Source: Hydrolagus colliei
Lineage: Eukaryota
Assembly (NCBI GenBank): GCA_035084275.1
Contig: CM068743.1
Location: forward strand, 89,466,001 to 89,530,000
Direction: 5' to 3'
DNA: 64,000 nt
The position numbers were made by a program, and so were the translations under genes. The notes below the pieces were generated by a model. That model saw only the letters and a program-made list of their open reading frames with translations, was not told the origin of the DNA and did no database searches. This document shows, one piece after another, positions 3,891-37,036 of this stretch. Each line of letters begins with the position of its first letter. Positions within the stretch are counted from its first letter, which is position 1.

Positions 3891-4627
3891 TGCCTTACAT
3901 AACTGGATAGCATGTTTTACTCTTCGTGCTTCTGGTACAGCTCTGAAAAACAATAGACAGATCACCTCACTTGTTTTCTGTAGCATTTATCTGAGTATTG
4001 AAAGGTATATCACATCTGCTGCAGTTGCTTTATAGACATTTGAAGAGTGATGTTTTTCATGCTGCTATGTGCAACAGCTTGACAATAGCCTTTAAACTGG
4101 TTTTGATGGATGAACTCCAGAAGAAATTATCTTGTGATTGTGTATCTTGGATAGGATTTATTGTTTTGTGGCAATATTTGCTTCATGGGAATGTGAAAAG
4201 TGGTGTATAAATAGGGCATTAGAGTTGTTTTACATAGAAATAGTTCTGGAATAGAAAGATAGGAGTTTGCTTCACTTGAGATTTAAATTGATGTATTTAT
4301 AAGTCAATAACATTGCTGTGATTTCAAAGCCTTTGTTTGTAAAGTAATGCTTTTTGTAGTAAATGTTTGCAGGTCTTATTTAGTGCGATGATTGACCTGT
4401 CACTGAAAGTAAGGAAATAAATCAATTTTACAATTTTCTGTGCATTTGTTTGCACAGAAATTACAATTTTTTTCCAAAAGATTATAGATTAAGAGGATTG
4501 AGAAAATAGTAACAATCATAACAGCGGGATTAAAACTTGAAGAAAACCTCACATTTAATTTTGATTTTAGTGCACAAAAATGTAGAGGAATGTGATCAAA
4601 CACTTCAATCACTTGAAGGACGAGTTT

Positions 4628-4870
4628 GAGTTCCGTAGCTCAGTGACAAGTGAGAGATCTGGGTTTGTTTCCCAGCAGGGTAAAACAGTGGGCAATTTCC
4701 TTACTCCACACACCTGATAATAATCCCCCCACAAAAAACAGTCACTTCAATCCACGACTGTGTGTGGGACATGCTGTGTGCAATTGGCTACTGATTTTCA
4801 CCCACAAATTTACGGTCAATTCACTTCACGGTATATCTGCACTATATCAAATGCAAGAATTCTTATAATA
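4628..4870 (+). mobile_element. tRNA-derived SINE (short family)
   Basis: A-box-like head gtagctcagtg, B-box-like gggtttgtttccc, ggcaatttccttactccaca, and the shared tail. Confidence 0.7.
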
Positions 4871-7782: not shown

Positions 7783-7915
7783 TTCCGAATGAATGAGTTT
7801 GGGACCCTGGAGATTATTACTACTGAAGAGCAGAATGGAGAAGCCACTCCAGAAGTTGTTGCTGAGACATGTGTGAAAAATAAAGGCTGCCACATTGTTG
7901 CTACAGACCCTCAAG
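7783..7915 (+). CDS. l3mbtl4: L3MBTL4-like coding exon A (FRMNEFGTLEIITTEEQNGEATPEVVAETCVKNKGCHIVATDPQ)
   Basis: Acceptor ttttcttataag, donor AAG|gtaagg, 133 nt, phase 0->1. FRxNEFGxLEVI is the conserved N-terminal block of L3MBTL3-type proteins. Confidence 0.85.
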
Positions 7916-9277
7916 GTAAGGAAAACCCTGGCTAAAATTTATAATTGTTTTCTATTACATTCCTTGTGTTAATTTGACTGGAATGTTTCCTATACTTGTA
8001 ATGGAATTAGGGTGGGAGGAGGTTCAGATCTGTGGTTGTATTTTATCACTGATGAAAAAGGCCCTTGAAACCAATCCTTCCAGGATACCTGTTATAGCAT
8101 CAAACTGATTCTTAAATTGTCCTGGCCTCCACTGCACATGTTCATCAATGGGAGAGATTACTAAGAGTGTTAAAAGAATTTTAGCAACACTAAATATTTT
8201 TTAGGCCCAATAAGCCCATCCCTTTTAGATTGGCCGATCTTAACAACAACTTGCATTTATATAATGCCCACCACGCCAGACAGCTTCTATAATAATATAT
8301 AATATAATAATCCTTGCATTTGACAGGCCCGTACGAAGGGGGGGTGCGACGGGTGCGTACGCACCCCACCAAATTATAAAAGGTCCACATTTTCCGGGTT
8401 AGAGAATTGTATATTTTATCAAATTTAAATACCAAGTAAAGTAAATTTATTGAACATTTGTGTAACAATCAGTTCTTCAAAACTATGTATAAATTATAAA
8501 CACACATCTTTGAATGTTTTAGTATTAATATAAAATTATCGAGTCGCACACCAGAATCGGCGTCTACGCAAAACATACCGCGTCGATAGACGAGTCAATG
8601 ACGCGGCGAGTCTGTGACTCGTGACTGGATAAACATAGGCGCGCGCCAAGACTCAAATCCTCGTTTGGAAATCATCCCGTAAACAGCCACAAGTGACAGC
8701 ACCACTTCTGGAAGTTAAAATCATCTTGTCATCTGATCACCGTAAGTAAAAATGACTCAAGTTTTGAGAGGTGTGACTGTAATGCTAGCAAACAATGACA
8801 ACATATTTACAAGCTTCTGAGAAATTAAAGCTTTTGAGAACCCAACAAAAAAGTTATATGCTGGACGGGAATGCCTATCTTTAAAAAAAATACTCATGGA
8901 CGTAGACCTATGCTTTAGCGCCTATTCTACATGGTGTGTCAATCGGAAATCATCCCGTATACAGTCACTACATAAAAAGGTAGCACCACTTTGTGGAAGC
9001 TGAAATCGTATTTGAATCTGATAAATGTAAGTAAAAATGACTTAAGTTTTGATAGGCGTGTTTCTGAAATATCATGTTTCTTGTTTTGTCTTGATTATCA
9101 CATTTGATTTATATTATTAAAAATGTATTCCTGTAATTAAAAATTGCTTTTAGAGACGTCCACTGGCATGCAAAAAACATATGACCGCAAAGATAAACAG
9201 TGCTACTTTATTTCACATTCAGTTTTGTACCCAGTGAAAAAACATCAATGTCGCACGAATTTGGCATAAAAATAGTT

Positions 9278-9697
9278 TCACCATCATCTGATCGAGCGAA
9301 CTCGGGCATTGACAACCACACTTCTCCACTGATCCCTTCTCTCCATGCAGCCTGACAACTCCCGCCTGCCAATACCCGAATCGCGCTCCAGAGTATCGAT
9401 GTAGGTTAGGGTCAGTCTACCTCGTGTTCTGTGACAGTGCAATGGTTCCCATAGGATAGTAGGACTATGGACAGTTTCCTCCCGGCTTCTCCAGCTATGT
9501 CCGCTAAACCTAAGTCGCCTCTGCAGTAATGTCTGTGATACCAGTGTGGTAGTGTACCATATAGCTCACTATTTGTCAGATGCTGTCGCCAGTAAACGTT
9601 CAGGGCGTCTCTTTAAAGCCTGGTATATACCTCATGAGTCACCTAATCTCCTGGTCAAGGTTTGCGTAAGTGTCCAGCATTCTGCTCCATCTAGGAG
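9278..9697 (-). mobile_element. RTE-clade LINE 3' fragment inside the hAT element
   Basis: Minus-strand translation with frameshifts: LLDGAECWTLTQTLTRRL...YTRL*RDALNVYWRQHLTNSELYGTLP...QRRLRFSGHSWRSREE...LWEPLHCHRTRGRLTLTYIDTLERDSG...MERRDQWRSVVVNARVRSIR*, then a short TGATGGTGA tail. Confidence 0.8.
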
Positions 9698-9823
9698 CGA
9701 CTTTCAGCACTCGCGTTAATGCACATTCATTATAATATGGAAATCGATATTGGTAGAGTGGTTGACGTATTCGCTTCAAAGCAACCAAGGCGTCTCGAAT
9801 ATGGAACGCTATTAAAGAATTAA
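9695..9823 (+). pseudogene. hAT transposase C-terminal dimerisation-domain remnant (ERLSALALMHIHYNMEIDIGRVVDVFASKQPRRLEYGTLLKN*)
   Basis: Manual translation. It matches the ERLxxLALxxIH...IDxxxVIDxFAxxxPRRL ending of Tip100/PRKRIR/ZMYM1-type hAT transposases. Confidence 0.85.
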
Positions 9824-12315
9824 TTTCCCCTCCCTTATTTTTTCAAGTATTTTTTCTTCAGATCAGTATTGCTTGATGGGTCACTTCCTTTAATTTTGAT
9901 TCTAAATAAATAAACAAAAACTAACTACACTATTGCTCACAGTTCAACGATATTTTCAGGATAATGCTGATAACAGGCTTGTAACACGTGTGAATTAACT
10001 GTTTTACACTGATTTTCAGTTTCTGTATATTTTCTTGTCTTTTATAAAATTTACTTTGCTGGAATATCTGAGCACATAATTCAAACTTTACTCTTACATT
10101 ATTGTTCATTACAGTCCGAAAGAAATTGAGTCTTAGGATAACAATGCAAAACAACTTATTAATTACTGTCAATCTGTAGTTTATGATCATTTTCTCTTAT
10201 ACGCATACATTTATCAAGCATTCGTCATTGTACTGTTTTAATTGGATTGTAATTTACTTTATCGTTCACATTCCGTACATCATCGAGTCAACAATCGTGT
10301 TTGCTTTTATCGGCGAACACATTCGACCTTCCCAAAAATTTAGACACGGACTACCGGGGAAAATAAAAACACTGAATAAATAATGATGCTCTTAAACACC
10401 AAGGGCATGAAACATTTACCGTTCATATTGGATCTTCTGAACCGATTAAATAAGACCTCAAACTGTGTAAAACGTCGGAGCCTCGAGGGGGCTTCGGGGG
10501 CAGCCCGCAAACCCCCAGCCATTGTTGGTCCCATCACTAGCAATTCGCACCCCGCCATTAAAAATCCTGCGTACGGCCCTGTTTGATATAGCGCTTTTCA
10601 CATCTTATCGACGTCCCAAAGCGCTTCACAGAATATACTGTAAAGTGAATTGACTGTATATATTTGTGGGCGAATCGCAGCAGCCAATTGCGTATAGCAG
10701 TGTCCCACACACAATCATGGATTGAAATAACCAATTTAATTATTGTGATTTTTTTTAGAGGGATTATTATTAGGTGTGTGGAGTAAGGAAACTTGCCCAA
10801 GGTTTCGACCTGACCTGCCTGGATTCGAACACAGATCTCCCCAGCTTGGTCTCCCCAGCTTGTAAGACAAGTGCTCTAACCACTGAGCCACAGGAGCTTC
10901 TCAGAGCGCTTCACAATAGCGATGCCTGGGGCCGAGACAGCGGGAGGGGGAAGGTGACCATAGGCATAGTCGAACAGAAAAATCTTCAGATGCGACCTGA
11001 AAATCGAAAAGGACAGGATGAGGTGAAGGATTGAGAGAGGGAGTTCCAGAGTTTTGGGGCATAGTGGCTGAAGGCATGGCTGCCGATGGTGGAGCGGAAT
11101 GGTTCAGCATTTGTGAATGGTGGCGGAGGGGAGTCAGGAGAGGAGAGCGTTGGAGTAGACCAGCTGAGAGGTGACAAAGGCATGGACTAGGGTTTTGGCA
11201 GCTTTTGGGGTAAGATATTAGCAGAGACGGGAAATGTGGTGGGAATGGAAGAAGGGACCGGATGTGGGGGTGGAAGAATAATTGTGGGTCGAACCTGACG
11301 CCTAGGTTGCGTATGGGTTCGGAGAATTGTAGGGGCAGTTCGGGTAGGTGGAGGAAGTGAGAGCCATGGGACTGAAGATATCGACGAGAACCAAAGTGTA
11401 TGGCTTCCGTCTTGTCAATGTTTAGCTGCAGGAAGGTTGCGCTCATCTGGCTCTTGATGTCTTAACCGACAGGCTGACAGAACATCAGGGGAATGGAGGT
11501 CACAATTTAAGGTGGAAAAGTAGAGTTGTCGTCTGCATACATGTGGAAGTTTGCCCCATGTCTGCTTATGACACCACCTATAGTTTTGCATATTGTAGCA
11601 TACTTGTGGAACACTACCCTGTGAGGAGGGCGCAATATAAGTGCAAGGTGTTGTTGTACGTTGTGCTGATCTCAGCTCCAGTAGCATACACATTTTCTAT
11701 TTATTGCTCCAGTGGCTTTTCAGAACAGAAATACTGAATAACTACTAATCAGTGGGAACTTTAATCACAATGCTGTGTTTAATGAACATTGCAAACGAAC
11801 TTCTCTAAACTTCATTAGTTTGGAGTGTGATTGGAATGCTATAATGCTCTTCATTGCTTTATCTGGGATATTGCAATAGTTCTCAGAAAATGCTGCATTG
11901 ATGCAGGATAGTAACAGAATTCGCATTTATTTTGGAGCAAGAGTTGTACTGAAGATCATTGTTCATCAGAATTTAAACGTGACTGTCATTTTCTTGGTGA
12001 TCAATGCTAAATGTTGCTTCAGCCTCTCGAATGATTTGATCACTGCAACATTAACATTAACAGAAAATAGCATCTTGCCCACTTAATTAATCAATATGAT
12101 TGATCACGAATTATAGTAGTACACATCTGTAGAAGCTATCAGGCAAAGAAAATGTATTAGATTTGGTGAAGTGGACAGCTAAATCATTGCTGGAAATAAT
12201 TTAAATAGATAGTAATAATAATTTGGTTACTCAATCCATGACTGTTTGTAGGACACTGCTGTGCACGTTGTGCACGTTATGACCACAAAACACATACCCA
12301 CTACACTTTATAGTA

Positions 12316-13075: not shown

Positions 13076-13498
13076 GCTGAACAGAGGCAGCGAACCGAAC
13101 AATGAGAGGCAAGTGGGGTGCATAGTGCTTGAAAGAAATTATCTTTAGATTTTCCCTAAAATCATGATTTGCAGGATTACATACATTTCTAAATCCAATC
13201 CTTTGTCTGAAGCATAATTTTTGCATCAAAATAAATTGATTTTTTTTCCCAGTTTATTGAAAAAATATTAGTGATTAATGTTTCAGAAACTGCCAGAAAT
13301 GAGCTTTTCTTTATAGTTGTTATGTTGCTGAGTGTTGTCTATTACAAATAGATGAATGAAATAATGTTTTAAAAAATAAAATGTCCTCCAGTATTCCACC
13401 TAACTGCTGAAAATTCAAAGCTAATGAGGCATGTTCACTGTATTGTCATTACCATATTGATTTGCTCATTGTTTTCTCATTCTGCCTCACAACTGAAG

Positions 13499-13646
13499 AC
13501 ATTACTGAAGGTGATTGCACAAGCGACTTGTCTCACATGGAGGGCATCTGCTGCTGTGAAAACTGTGGACGGTATGGAACAGTGGAGGAGTTCAACCAAA
13601 GTGTCCGCTTTTGTAGCACTCGCTGTCAGCAGCAGTACAAAGAAAA
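13499..13646 (+). CDS. l3mbtl4: Exon B, FCS-type zinc finger (CCCENCGRYG...FCSTRC)
   Basis: Acceptor ...cacaactgaag, donor AAA|gtaagt, 148 nt, phase 1->2. CxxC...FCSxxC motif. An in-frame alternative AG at 13510 is possible. Confidence 0.85.
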
Positions 13647-13984
13647 GTAAGTGGGGGGTAAAAAAAAATCTCTTGAGAACCACGAGAAAATGTAATTTCA
13701 AAGCAAGAAAAAAAAATTGTTGCGTGAAAACAACCTGCCAGATTGAACATTGAAAGTGTTGTTGTCCATATGATTATACTGAGGTCTTGTGTGCCGATTC
13801 ATTTAGTTCTGCTGTTGACCTGTGCTTGCTGGAAATGCAGTGCACCTGGCTTTTTGTGCTGATGAGCCAACTTCCTGCAATAAAATATAACTAATGTCTG
13901 GGTTGCCAGGGACCTGAAATGTGATTGGTGACACTTTCTTGTGTGTTATATGCATATAGGACTATTATTCTCCAACTCTAGCAT

Positions 13985-34508: not shown

Positions 34509-34809
34509 CTGGCTTGTGTTATGAGCAAACCAGTTATTGTTTTCAACCAGTGAGTCATGTCTGGCACCTTCAACAACCTGCTGTGTTCCTACTATGCCAG
34601 GGATTATAACTATCTTTTAAATTTAAACATGCTTGGTAGAGGGAAAGGGTGATATGTTCTCAATCTTAATGTGGGAGCAGGTGCAATCTCTGGCTGGGCA
34701 ATGTTGTGCAAAGTGCATTGAACGTAAAGAGGAGAAAACTGATATTTTAAAATGAAGAACAGAATACAAAAAAAAACACGCTTTACAGCAAACTTACATA
34801 TCTTTCTAG

Positions 34810-35763
34810 TAGGGTCCGTCGATATGGAAATTTTCAGATTAAATATATCGATGGGCTCATATCGAGATATACCGAAATATCGATATTTTCGGGTTTTTCG
34901 TACTGCGCATGCATTCCGGGTGCGCGCGCATTCGGGGCCTATCTCCTCAGGAGGTAAATATCTTTCTCTCTCTGTGTCTCTCACTCTCTCCATCTTTGTG
35001 TTTTTCTGTCTGTGTGTCTCTCTCCCTTTCTCCTCTCTCACATTCCCCCCCATCTCTATCTATCTGTATATTATCACATCCACCCGTCTCTCCCCCCACC
35101 CCCCCGCCGTTCCTCTCTCGCACCCCCCACCCCCGTCGTCTCTCTCCCCCACCACCACCCCCGCCGTCTCTCTCTCACCCCCCCCCCCGCCGTCTCTCTC
35201 TCCCTCCCCCCCCCAGCCGTCTCTCTCCCCTCCCCAGCCGTCTCTCTCCCCCACCCCCTCCCCCTCCCTGTCTCTCTCCCCCTCCCCGCAGCCGTCTCTC
35301 TTCCTCTCCCCCCAGCCGTCTCTCTCCCCCTCTCCTCCCCCCCCAGCCGTCTCTCTCACCCCCCAGCCGTCTCTCTCCCCCCCCCCCCCAGCCGTCTCTC
35401 CTCCCCCCCCAGCCGTCTCTCTCCCCCTCCGCGCAGCCGTCTCTCCCCCCCCCCAGCCATCTCTCTCCCCCTCACCCCCCCCCCCCAGCCGTCTCTCTCA
35501 CCCCCCACCCCTTGCATACCTGTATATTGTATTCGAGAACTGTGAATACAATATGGTGGCTTTGCACCTCGGTCTGTGCATTGGCAATAGGATATAGAGA
35601 TGAGCATTCTGGGTCTTGTAGTTCAGTGTGCTCGCATCCCGATTTTTTACCTCGATATATCGATTTTTTCGATATATCGATTTTTTTGAAATGTCTATAT
35701 CAGCATATCGATATGAAAATTATACCGAGTTTTAGCGATATATTGATATATCGCTGGACCCTT
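34810..35763. mobile_element. Non-autonomous hAT (Ac-like TAGGG ends) with 8-bp TSD and internal minisatellite
   Basis: TIRs TAGGGTCCGTCGATAT / ATATCGCTGGACCCTT. TSD CTTTCTAG at 34802-34809 and 35764-35771. Subterminal ATCGAT/GATAT repeats at both ends. Confidence 0.88.
35075..35510. repeat. C-rich minisatellite, unit about CCCCCC(C/A)GCCGTCTCTCT
   Basis: Directly visible tandem units with variable C-run length. It explains the Pro-rich ORFs. Confidence 0.9.
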
Positions 35764-37036
35764 CTTTCTAGTATATCTTTTAAGTATACAGCCAGTTTGC
35801 TGCAGACAGACAAGGCAGCAGCTTGGACCAGTAAAATTAATGACAATAATCTAGAGATTTGCTGGGGGTTGGATTTCCCTCTGAATCCAACCGCCAGCTT
35901 GGTTGCAAACCCTTACGTGACATGAAAGGTGCTGTCTAAATACAATTTGTTGTTGTTACAGTGCCATGATATCTTTTACCATTCAACCGAATAAGCAGAC
36001 TGAAAATTTTGTGCATCTAAAAGTGATCCAAGAAACAAAGCTCAGCACCGTTCCTCCCAATATTATGTTGTATCGACATTACCTCAGCTCTCAGAATAGC
36101 ATTGTTTGGTACATCGCTCAAAGATCTTGCTTTGCTGCTGACTGGTCCTGGCTCCGCACTAATTAACACCCAACCCAGCTCAGCTACAAATCAGAAAATT
36201 ATTGACCCATTTTTATTGTGCCTGCCAAAAAGTTATAGAAATCATTAAGCTAATGTTTTGTTGATGAACTCATTCAAAGGAAGTAAATTTCATTCTTTCT
36301 CTTCAAGTAACTCAAATTCATAAGTGTTCTGTCCTACAGTGGTTCAAAATCTGCCCTTATAATTTAGGTGTTCAATCACCCCAACTGTTTTCTGTGAAAA
36401 GTTTGTCTCATCTGTTTTCTTTATTATCCAAGAAATGAAGAATGTTGGGTTAATCACCAAAGCTACAAATTTTCTCATTATTTGAATGAAGTTGTCCTTC
36501 TACAAACCTGCCTGCCCTCTCAATTTTTTAACTTAACCTTGTGATTATTAAACAGTCTACCTTTCAGTCTTTTTTTTAAAAAAAAGGTTTGCCTGCTTCC
36601 TCATTCACAGAACTAACGTTACATATTTCTGCTGGCTTTGCTACCAACCCTTGTGGTGTGCACTTATAATAAGATTCCTATCAAAGGCTAATATTTTAGT
36701 GACCAACAACAACAAATGACATATATGTCGGGTTTGTGATTTATCACTCCTTAGGGTACAATTTTGAGCCGAGGCATATGAAAAATGCTTGGGCAAAGAT
36801 TTTCTGTCCAAAATAACTCTTTAGTTTCTTAACAAGCAGTATCTTTTGGAGATGAATATTATTTCATAAGCAAATTGAAATTCATTAAAATAAGGAAACA
36901 TGTAACTGCAGTAGATAGTGCGCACAAAACACATGGTACAATGTTTATGGCAGTTGCATCATTTTTACAGATTCTCTGCATCAAATAGATTGTTTGTGTT
37001 TCTATTTATTAATGTGATATATTACCTGTTTGGTAG

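Follow-up and report, generated by a model that had tools for sequence, protein, structure and literature searches.

The window analysed here is a 64,000-nucleotide stretch of the Hydrolagus colliei genome (contig CM068743.1), which carries the exons of a gene that we take, from motif and domain order, to be L3MBTL-type. An intron of this gene holds a non-autonomous hAT transposon of about 2.26 kb (8324–10581), with 16-bp terminal inverted repeats (TIRs) and the target-site duplication (TSD) TTTGA on both sides, inserted into a host short interspersed element (SINE). Inside it, the 3' end of an RTE-type retrotransposon abuts the C-terminus of a hAT transposase (Table 1). Our preferred reading, which we hold with reasonable confidence, is that the element is a 2.6-kb deletion form of a 4.9-kb parent that already contained the dead RTE fragment, that its family makes 5-bp TSDs, and that it likely entered the host lineage horizontally.

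Table 1. Features of the element and its insertion site, in window coordinates
Feature	Position	Strand	Basis
Host exon upstream of the element, which lies in the following intron of the L3MBTL-type gene (name presumed)	7783–7915	+	
Left 5-bp TSD, TTTGA	8319–8323	+	Sequence, family comparison, rejoined SINE
Left TIR, 16 bp	8324–8339	+	Sequence; genome-wide count of the TIR pattern
Sub-terminal GGGTGCG/CGCACCC motifs, putative transposase-binding sites	8338–8366	+	Sequence; inverted pair with 10545–10556
Internal unit of the 5' non-coding region, present as two diverged copies at a spacing of about 280 bases	8667–9060	+	Direct-repeat search
Surviving copy of the RTE insertion's own TSD, AAATAGTT; partner kept in long elements, deleted here	9270–9277	+	Parent comparison
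3' end of RTE-type non-long-terminal-repeat (non-LTR) retrotransposon: C-terminus of the open reading frame (ORF), stop at 9284–9286, short (GAT)n tail, frameshifted	9278–9697	-	Protein matches, parent comparison
Deletion junction (break 9697/9698) defining the 2.26-kb subfamily; about 2.63 kb of parent removed	9692–9707	+	Comparison with long copies; 612 exact matches
Transposase C-terminus, last 41 codons and stop	9698–9823	+	Tail search, parent ORFs, Pfam
Right sub-terminal CGCACCC motif	10545–10556	+	Inverted-pair search
Right TIR, 16 bp	10566–10581	+	Sequence, family comparison
Right 5-bp TSD, TTTGA	10582–10586	+	Sequence, family comparison, rejoined SINE
Host SINE-like repeat split by the element	10587–10898 (larger part); rest about 8285–8318	.	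BLAST to other SINE copies

The two TIRs of this copy agree at 14 of 16 bases, those of the subfamily consensus at 15 of 16. Excision of the element with one TSD copy in silico restored the host SINE, the rejoined point being spanned by 73 BLAST matches to other SINE copies, the commonest form of which is identical over 29 bases. The TIRs and the TTTGA duplication with its exact SINE rejoining, both proposed in an earlier reading of the window made without database searches (the sequence-only reading), are thus upheld. We searched the host genome (1.0 Gb, 532 contigs) with the element and recovered 37 near-full-length copies at 95–100% identity among the 40 of 1,673 candidates that were scored; a 16-mer TIR pattern had 1,672 exact genome matches, against 0 for the reversed control.

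TSD length across the family had been set beforehand as a test of the 5-bp claim. Among 113 distinct two-ended elements, drawn from 193 loci, 83 have a 5-bp TSD, three have 6 bp, four have 7 bp, one has 4 bp, none has 8 bp and 22 have none, so that 5-bp TSDs make up 83 of the 91 with any perfect duplication; random flank pairs, as a control, matched over 5 bp in 36 of 20,000 cases. The 30 closest loci gave a similar picture, with a perfect 5-bp TSD in 21, single cases of 6, 7 and 4 bp, and six without any. TSDs of 6–7 bp account for 7 of the 91 perfect ones (about 8%: L005, L007, L049, L078, L080, L140 and L169), and the cut made by the transposase apparently ranges in width from 5 to 7 bases. 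At one locus (L141), a 2.25-kb copy is nested in a longer family member, each with its own 5-bp TSD.

With the 42-residue transposase tail as query, we retrieved copies with long open frames. These long elements (4.65–5.3 kb, the parent being about 4.9 kb) have the same ends as the short element and encode DUF4371 and Dimer_Tnp_hAT domains (PF05699 above cut-off, PF14291), the consensus ORF comprising 846 codons. The RTE piece lies upstream of this ORF in all five long copies that we selected by TIR spacing or by the transposase tail (L061–L064 and L078), and in the parent it is 172 bp from the transposase ATG. In L062 numbering, the window element corresponds to parent bases 1–1351 fused to 3985–4869, and the short-element ends are 97.6% and 99.4% identical to the parent consensus. 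The two parental sites joined by the deletion resemble each other imperfectly, which is why the RTE and transposase sequences appear to overlap. The 2.26-kb element is therefore an ordinary 2.6-kb internal deletion of the parent, with the properties of a non-autonomous derivative. Of the sequence-only reading, the 42-codon tail stands as the real C-terminus of a DUF4371/Dimer_Tnp_hAT ORF, though shortened to 41 codons beginning at 9698 (codon 'E', 9695–9697, belongs to the RTE side), and the antisense RTE ORF end at 9278–9697 stands too, its supposed overlap being the deletion junction. The idea that the RTE piece sits in place of the transposase has to be given up, since in the parent it lies in the 5' non-coding part, with its own TSD, alongside the whole ORF.

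We counted 612 exact genome matches of the junction 16-mer, in agreement with the proposal that the transposon mobilises a piece of a LINE (long interspersed element), and this 16-mer is unchanged in 24 of 28 aligned short copies; the 2.26-kb subfamily therefore has about 700 copies, probably an underestimate. The undeleted parental 16-mer has 19 exact matches, and further deletion derivatives, from 1.0 to 4.6 kb, are numerous. Some long copies (L134, L135 and L136) contain extra segments of 142 bp and 92 bp that are not in the window subfamily, the 142-bp one also occurring in a contig from organism B, introduced below. A stop-free ORF of 845–846 amino acids is found in two of 40 transposase-bearing copies (L157 and L173), at 95–96% identity to the consensus, and chance survival could suffice to explain the pair. 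Both copies contain ADEV, GYDGA, CxxHC, TRW and CECERS, which we presume to represent the D/D/E triad and the CxxH and W motifs. The transposase had no match in the PDB by sequence, and a Pfam search with the short peptides of the window itself was uninformative.

In the parent, the RTE piece measures 470 bp and lies antisense. It is a retro-insertion into the hAT, to judge by its 5' truncation, its short terminal GAT repeat and the copies of AAATAGTT (8 bp) on either side, all hallmarks of non-LTR insertions; the window deletion took about 50 bp of the piece together with its second duplication copy. The piece is 82% identical to the protein P0155 over 93 amino acids and matches about 125 of 151 residues (a rough frame-aware count) of the metagenome protein P0165 from the same cluster, which has Pfam RVT_1 and a weak DUF6451; the RTE clade label itself is our assumption from motifs. 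Its consensus contains two frameshifts and one stop, and the piece therefore decayed before the family multiplied.

The family from which the piece came was not found in the host genome. Residues 1–86 of P0155, the segment just upstream of the piece, had 0 host-genome matches, and the reverse transcriptase domain P0161 gave, with all 95 of 95 candidates scored, matches of 24–34% to other LINEs alone. When the whole of P0165 was searched, all 117 scored matches (of 2,427 candidates) started at residue 193, the truncation point, or later; these matches double as a positive control. Each of the 38 loci with the RTE piece that we inspected, that of the window among them, has it inside the hAT. Elsewhere, a metagenome scan for the RTE DNA returned distant loci alone (27–49%), a wider protein search yielded relatives at 45–60% with a single named match, Penaeus, at 58%, and the protein-atlas RVT_1 clusters cover too few taxa to be informative. 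Resident LINEs that we take to be R2-like, with 1,058-amino-acid open frames, were seen on several small contigs (L111–L125) and in a tandem array of about 3.3-kb spacing on contig C6 near 81.5 Mb.

The predicted RTE-free parental junction was absent from all 201 loci (0/201) and had 0 matches genome-wide at one mismatch or fewer. Among 40 copies chosen by the transposase core, 36 retain part of the piece and four have lost it through larger deletions. The sequence-only reading had held that copies lacking the RTE segment would speak for a one-off local insertion; such copies exist solely as larger-deletion forms, for example those of 1.0 kb (L071 and L073), and none shows a pre-insertion site. 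Since these RTE-less 1-kb derivatives also multiplied, the piece is most likely inert cargo.

The family is young, as had been proposed. After two truncated loci of the 30 had been dropped, 28 short copies lie 0.8–2.8% from their consensus (mean 1.8%), and ten long copies, five of them chosen via RTE matches, likewise lie 0.8–2.8% from theirs, with 16 stops and a ratio of nonsynonymous to synonymous differences per site (pN/pS) of 0.71, which is near neutral. Cartilaginous fishes evolve more slowly than a vertebrate-wide rate, and the burst may therefore be several times older than such a rate makes it. At the vertebrate-wide 3.1e-9 per site per year of PMC7070016, it is dated to about 6 million years. 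Clustered near-identical long copies at G000:C3:104.1-104.9 Mb and on C111 suggest segmental duplication, not transposition. The abundance of CpG noted in the sequence-only reading is real, with an observed/expected ratio of 1.01 within the element vs 0.34 in the rest of the window. Because the resident R2-like LINE ORFs reach 0.74–0.83, this richness shows youth rather than foreign origin; CpG sites in the copies decay just 2.3 times as fast as other C/G sites, and CpG content was rejected on both counts as a sign of foreign origin.

We next compared the transposase with proteins from other organisms. Its consensus is 83% identical to P0001, 82% and 86% identical to P0003 and P0002 of the vent snail Gigantopelta aegis, and 65% identical to a Hydra cluster, whereas teleost matches (three among the 120 listed) reach 45–50%; a representative-protein search added no named or closer full-length relative. 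In a quick tree of 50 rows (the top 40 matches, the named matches and the consensus), the host sequence, P0001 and Gigantopelta form a clade with a Shimodaira–Hasegawa-like approximate likelihood-ratio (SH-aLRT) value of 100, and the Hydra cluster is sister to it at 91. Teleost proteins fall elsewhere, so that this tree is incongruent with host relationships, the host grouping with snail and Hydra. The transposase-core search gave 150 matches (150 of 342 candidates scored), all 75–100% identical, and no older tail was seen among them. Conservation of the transposase between hosts together with near-neutral decay inside one is the pattern described for transferred DNA transposons (PMC7070016).

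Because the transposase is 82–86% identical to snail proteins vs 45–50% to teleost ones, the copies are young and the RTE source was not found, the composite hAT likely reached the host lineage horizontally. Horizontal acquisition, raised as a possibility in the sequence-only reading, thus gains support from the snail identity, the tree and the missing RTE source. The source was probably another animal, and probably a marine invertebrate; the Gigantopelta element would be a relative of the one in the donor lineage, and the snail need not itself be the donor. Contamination was considered and rejected. On the host side, the copies interrupt repeats and genes of this genome and have TSDs there; on the snail side, the proteins are encoded on contigs of 42 and 82 Mb and diverge by 14–18%.

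Several points weigh against this reading. The claim of transfer rests on protein identity and takes it as given that 82–86% is too high for descent from a snail–vertebrate ancestor, and the tree is a quick one without bootstrap. The records of P0001 and the RTE proteins come from metagenomes, and their hosts could be fishes. The copies were chosen as best matches, which biases their divergence low. The searches scored 117 of 2,427 candidates for P0165 and 150 of 342 for the transposase core, so that short free RTE ends or older hAT relatives may have been missed. In general, a vertical presence in vertebrates is made plausible by ancient relics of hAT5 and RTE (PMC9004415). Finally, the element occurs in sequencing runs of organisms A–E (four of 20 listed runs examined), and those of B, C and D include its RTE part, mostly at 90–99% likeness, so that the invasion may predate a recent split or have been repeated. 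One contig from organism B runs continuously from the RTE piece into the ORF. Organism E has a relative at about 90% in which the RTE bins are without cover and no contig joins across (15 of 17 joints shown), and we do not count it as evidence. The junction of the window subfamily is absent from these 15 of 17 joints, organism D has other deletions, and no RNA holder of the element was listed among the sequence runs.

We regard it as unlikely that the hAT arrived horizontally without the RTE piece and acquired it later in the host lineage, from a low-copy family since lost or missed. The uncovered RTE bins of organism E would fit such an order, although lack of cover is a weak sign, as would the RTE families of other vertebrates (PMC9004415) and the limited number of P0165 candidates scored. 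However, at about 125 of 151 residues to P0165 the source family should have been easily found and none was, the RTE-free junction is missing from the 201 loci and, at one mismatch or fewer, from the genome, and the frameshifts and stop in the piece predate the burst. Vertical inheritance of both parts, by which an old cartilaginous-fish resident was recently reawakened and resembles the snail element through slow evolution and gaps in sampling, would accommodate the element's presence in runs of at least three other organisms and the conserved tetrapod hAT5 relic, evidence of the group's long history in vertebrates (PMC9004415). We find it highly improbable given 82–86% amino-acid identity to a mollusc vs 45–50% to teleost relatives, the near-neutral evolution inside the host, and the lack of an old tail among the 150 listed transposase-core matches, all at 75–100%. 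It is likewise highly improbable that the hAT recruited the piece, for instance as a promoter or untranslated-region element of the transposase that aided its spread: the piece ends 172 bp before the ATG and is partly retained in 36 of 40 transposase-bearing copies, but many subfamilies are without much or all of it, and both copies with a stop-free 845–846-amino-acid ORF have lost its middle 300 bp. The single-event composite of the sequence-only reading, in which the RTE insertion displaced the transposase so that the two abut as in the short element, can be dismissed, as the whole RTE piece and whole ORF coexist in L061–L064 and L078 and the junction removes about 50 bp of RTE with the second duplication copy; a microhomology-mediated RTE insertion with target deletion was rejected on the same parents.

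Under the preferred reading of a composite that likely entered horizontally, an RTE family would have resided in an earlier host, where a 5'-truncated copy inserted antisense into the 5' non-coding region of the hAT; the tail, the truncation and the 8-bp duplication of this step are observed. The RTE piece would then have decayed while the transposase stayed intact, as is seen in the consensus, and the composite would have reached the host lineage, where its recent multiplication is observed. One deletion would have produced the 2.26-kb form. In established hAT biology, the transposase works in trans through TIRs and sub-terminal motifs and makes a staggered cut at integration; by analogy, the enzyme of the long copies would move the 2.26-kb form through these same parts, with a cut usually of 5 bases and sometimes of 6–7, as the observed TSD lengths suggest. 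In its strongest form, towards which we lean without great conviction, this history would be a recent jump from a marine invertebrate to a cartilaginous fish, carrying an RTE 'passport stamp' from a family never resident in the fish. If so, the stamp would identify the intermediate host and put the stages of a transfer between phyla in sequence, and the fish genome would contain a LINE fragment in hundreds of copies while lacking the LINE itself.

In the surrounding window, exons of the L3MBTL-type gene extend over 7783–60800 on the + strand, with six MBT exon matches starting at about 28519, 30053, 33739, 37038, 54568 and 60661. The next exon after the element (13481–13647) has a weak zf-FCS match, under cut-off. 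A GC-rich segment with a simple-repeat interior (34610–35925) resembles sequence in L080, L153 and L183 and is possibly another mobile family.

Among known systems, the family is a member of the hAT superfamily, having its transposase domains, short TIRs and sub-terminal repeats. Most hATs make the canonical 8-bp TSD, a length seen here in 0 of 113. The hAT5 group, reportedly due to Kapitonov and Jurka (2007), combines a hAT transposase with a 5-bp TSD, and judged by this TSD length (83 of 113) the family would count as a hAT5 member. Elements of the group are described from invertebrates, fish and one tetrapod relic (PMC12730594, PMC9004415); one account lists the Hydra-suffixed hAT-13_HM as hAT5 (PMC9004415), another places hAT5 in a lineage with Blackjack (PMC12730594), and the main text of PMC6004678, in the part drawn on, is without hAT5. 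The window family shares with hAT5 the transposase, the short TIRs and the 5-bp TSD, a likeness drawn from TSDs and published descriptions, and its nearest named relatives are invertebrate, the Hydra protein cluster being sister to its clade. It differs in being a young burst of several hundred copies, in the 6–7-bp lengths of about 8% of its perfect TSDs, and in a parent that carries a LINE fragment. The spread from 5 to 7 bases in this large young sample of hAT5 insertions should help in studying what determines the stagger of hAT enzymes. The PRKRIR/THAP12- and ZMYM1-like (DUF4371) proteins have the same Pfam domains and supply the database names of the matches, but the window family is mobile and multicopy, not a domesticated gene.

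Like the DNA transposons transferred horizontally among fishes (PMC7070016), the family shows a protein conserved between hosts and neutral decay inside one. That screen, however, compared vertebrate with vertebrate, and 93.7% of its transfers involved ray-finned fishes, whereas in this case a mollusc is the nearest named partner and the host is a cartilaginous fish. Direction and route are the hardest parts of horizontal-transfer claims, and an RTE insertion that has a target duplication of its own, and whose source was not found in the host, is an internal marker for the route. The closest precedent for such cargo is MER6/MER6A (PMC6887750), in which a non-autonomous DNA transposon likewise spread a retroelement piece for which no source family was found in the host genomes. 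MER6 is a Mariner with a V-SINE, is old (39% diverged), and no matching parent was found in its host; the window family still has its cargo-bearing parent, with a TSD around the cargo itself, and its copies are 1–3% diverged. We found no paper describing this element, although Repbase and Dfam lay outside the search and it may be catalogued there. Elements of the hAT5 group, transposon transfer into fishes and DNA transposons with orphan retroelement pieces such as MER6 are all known already, so that each ingredient has a precedent; the family makes a good case study rather than a new type of element.

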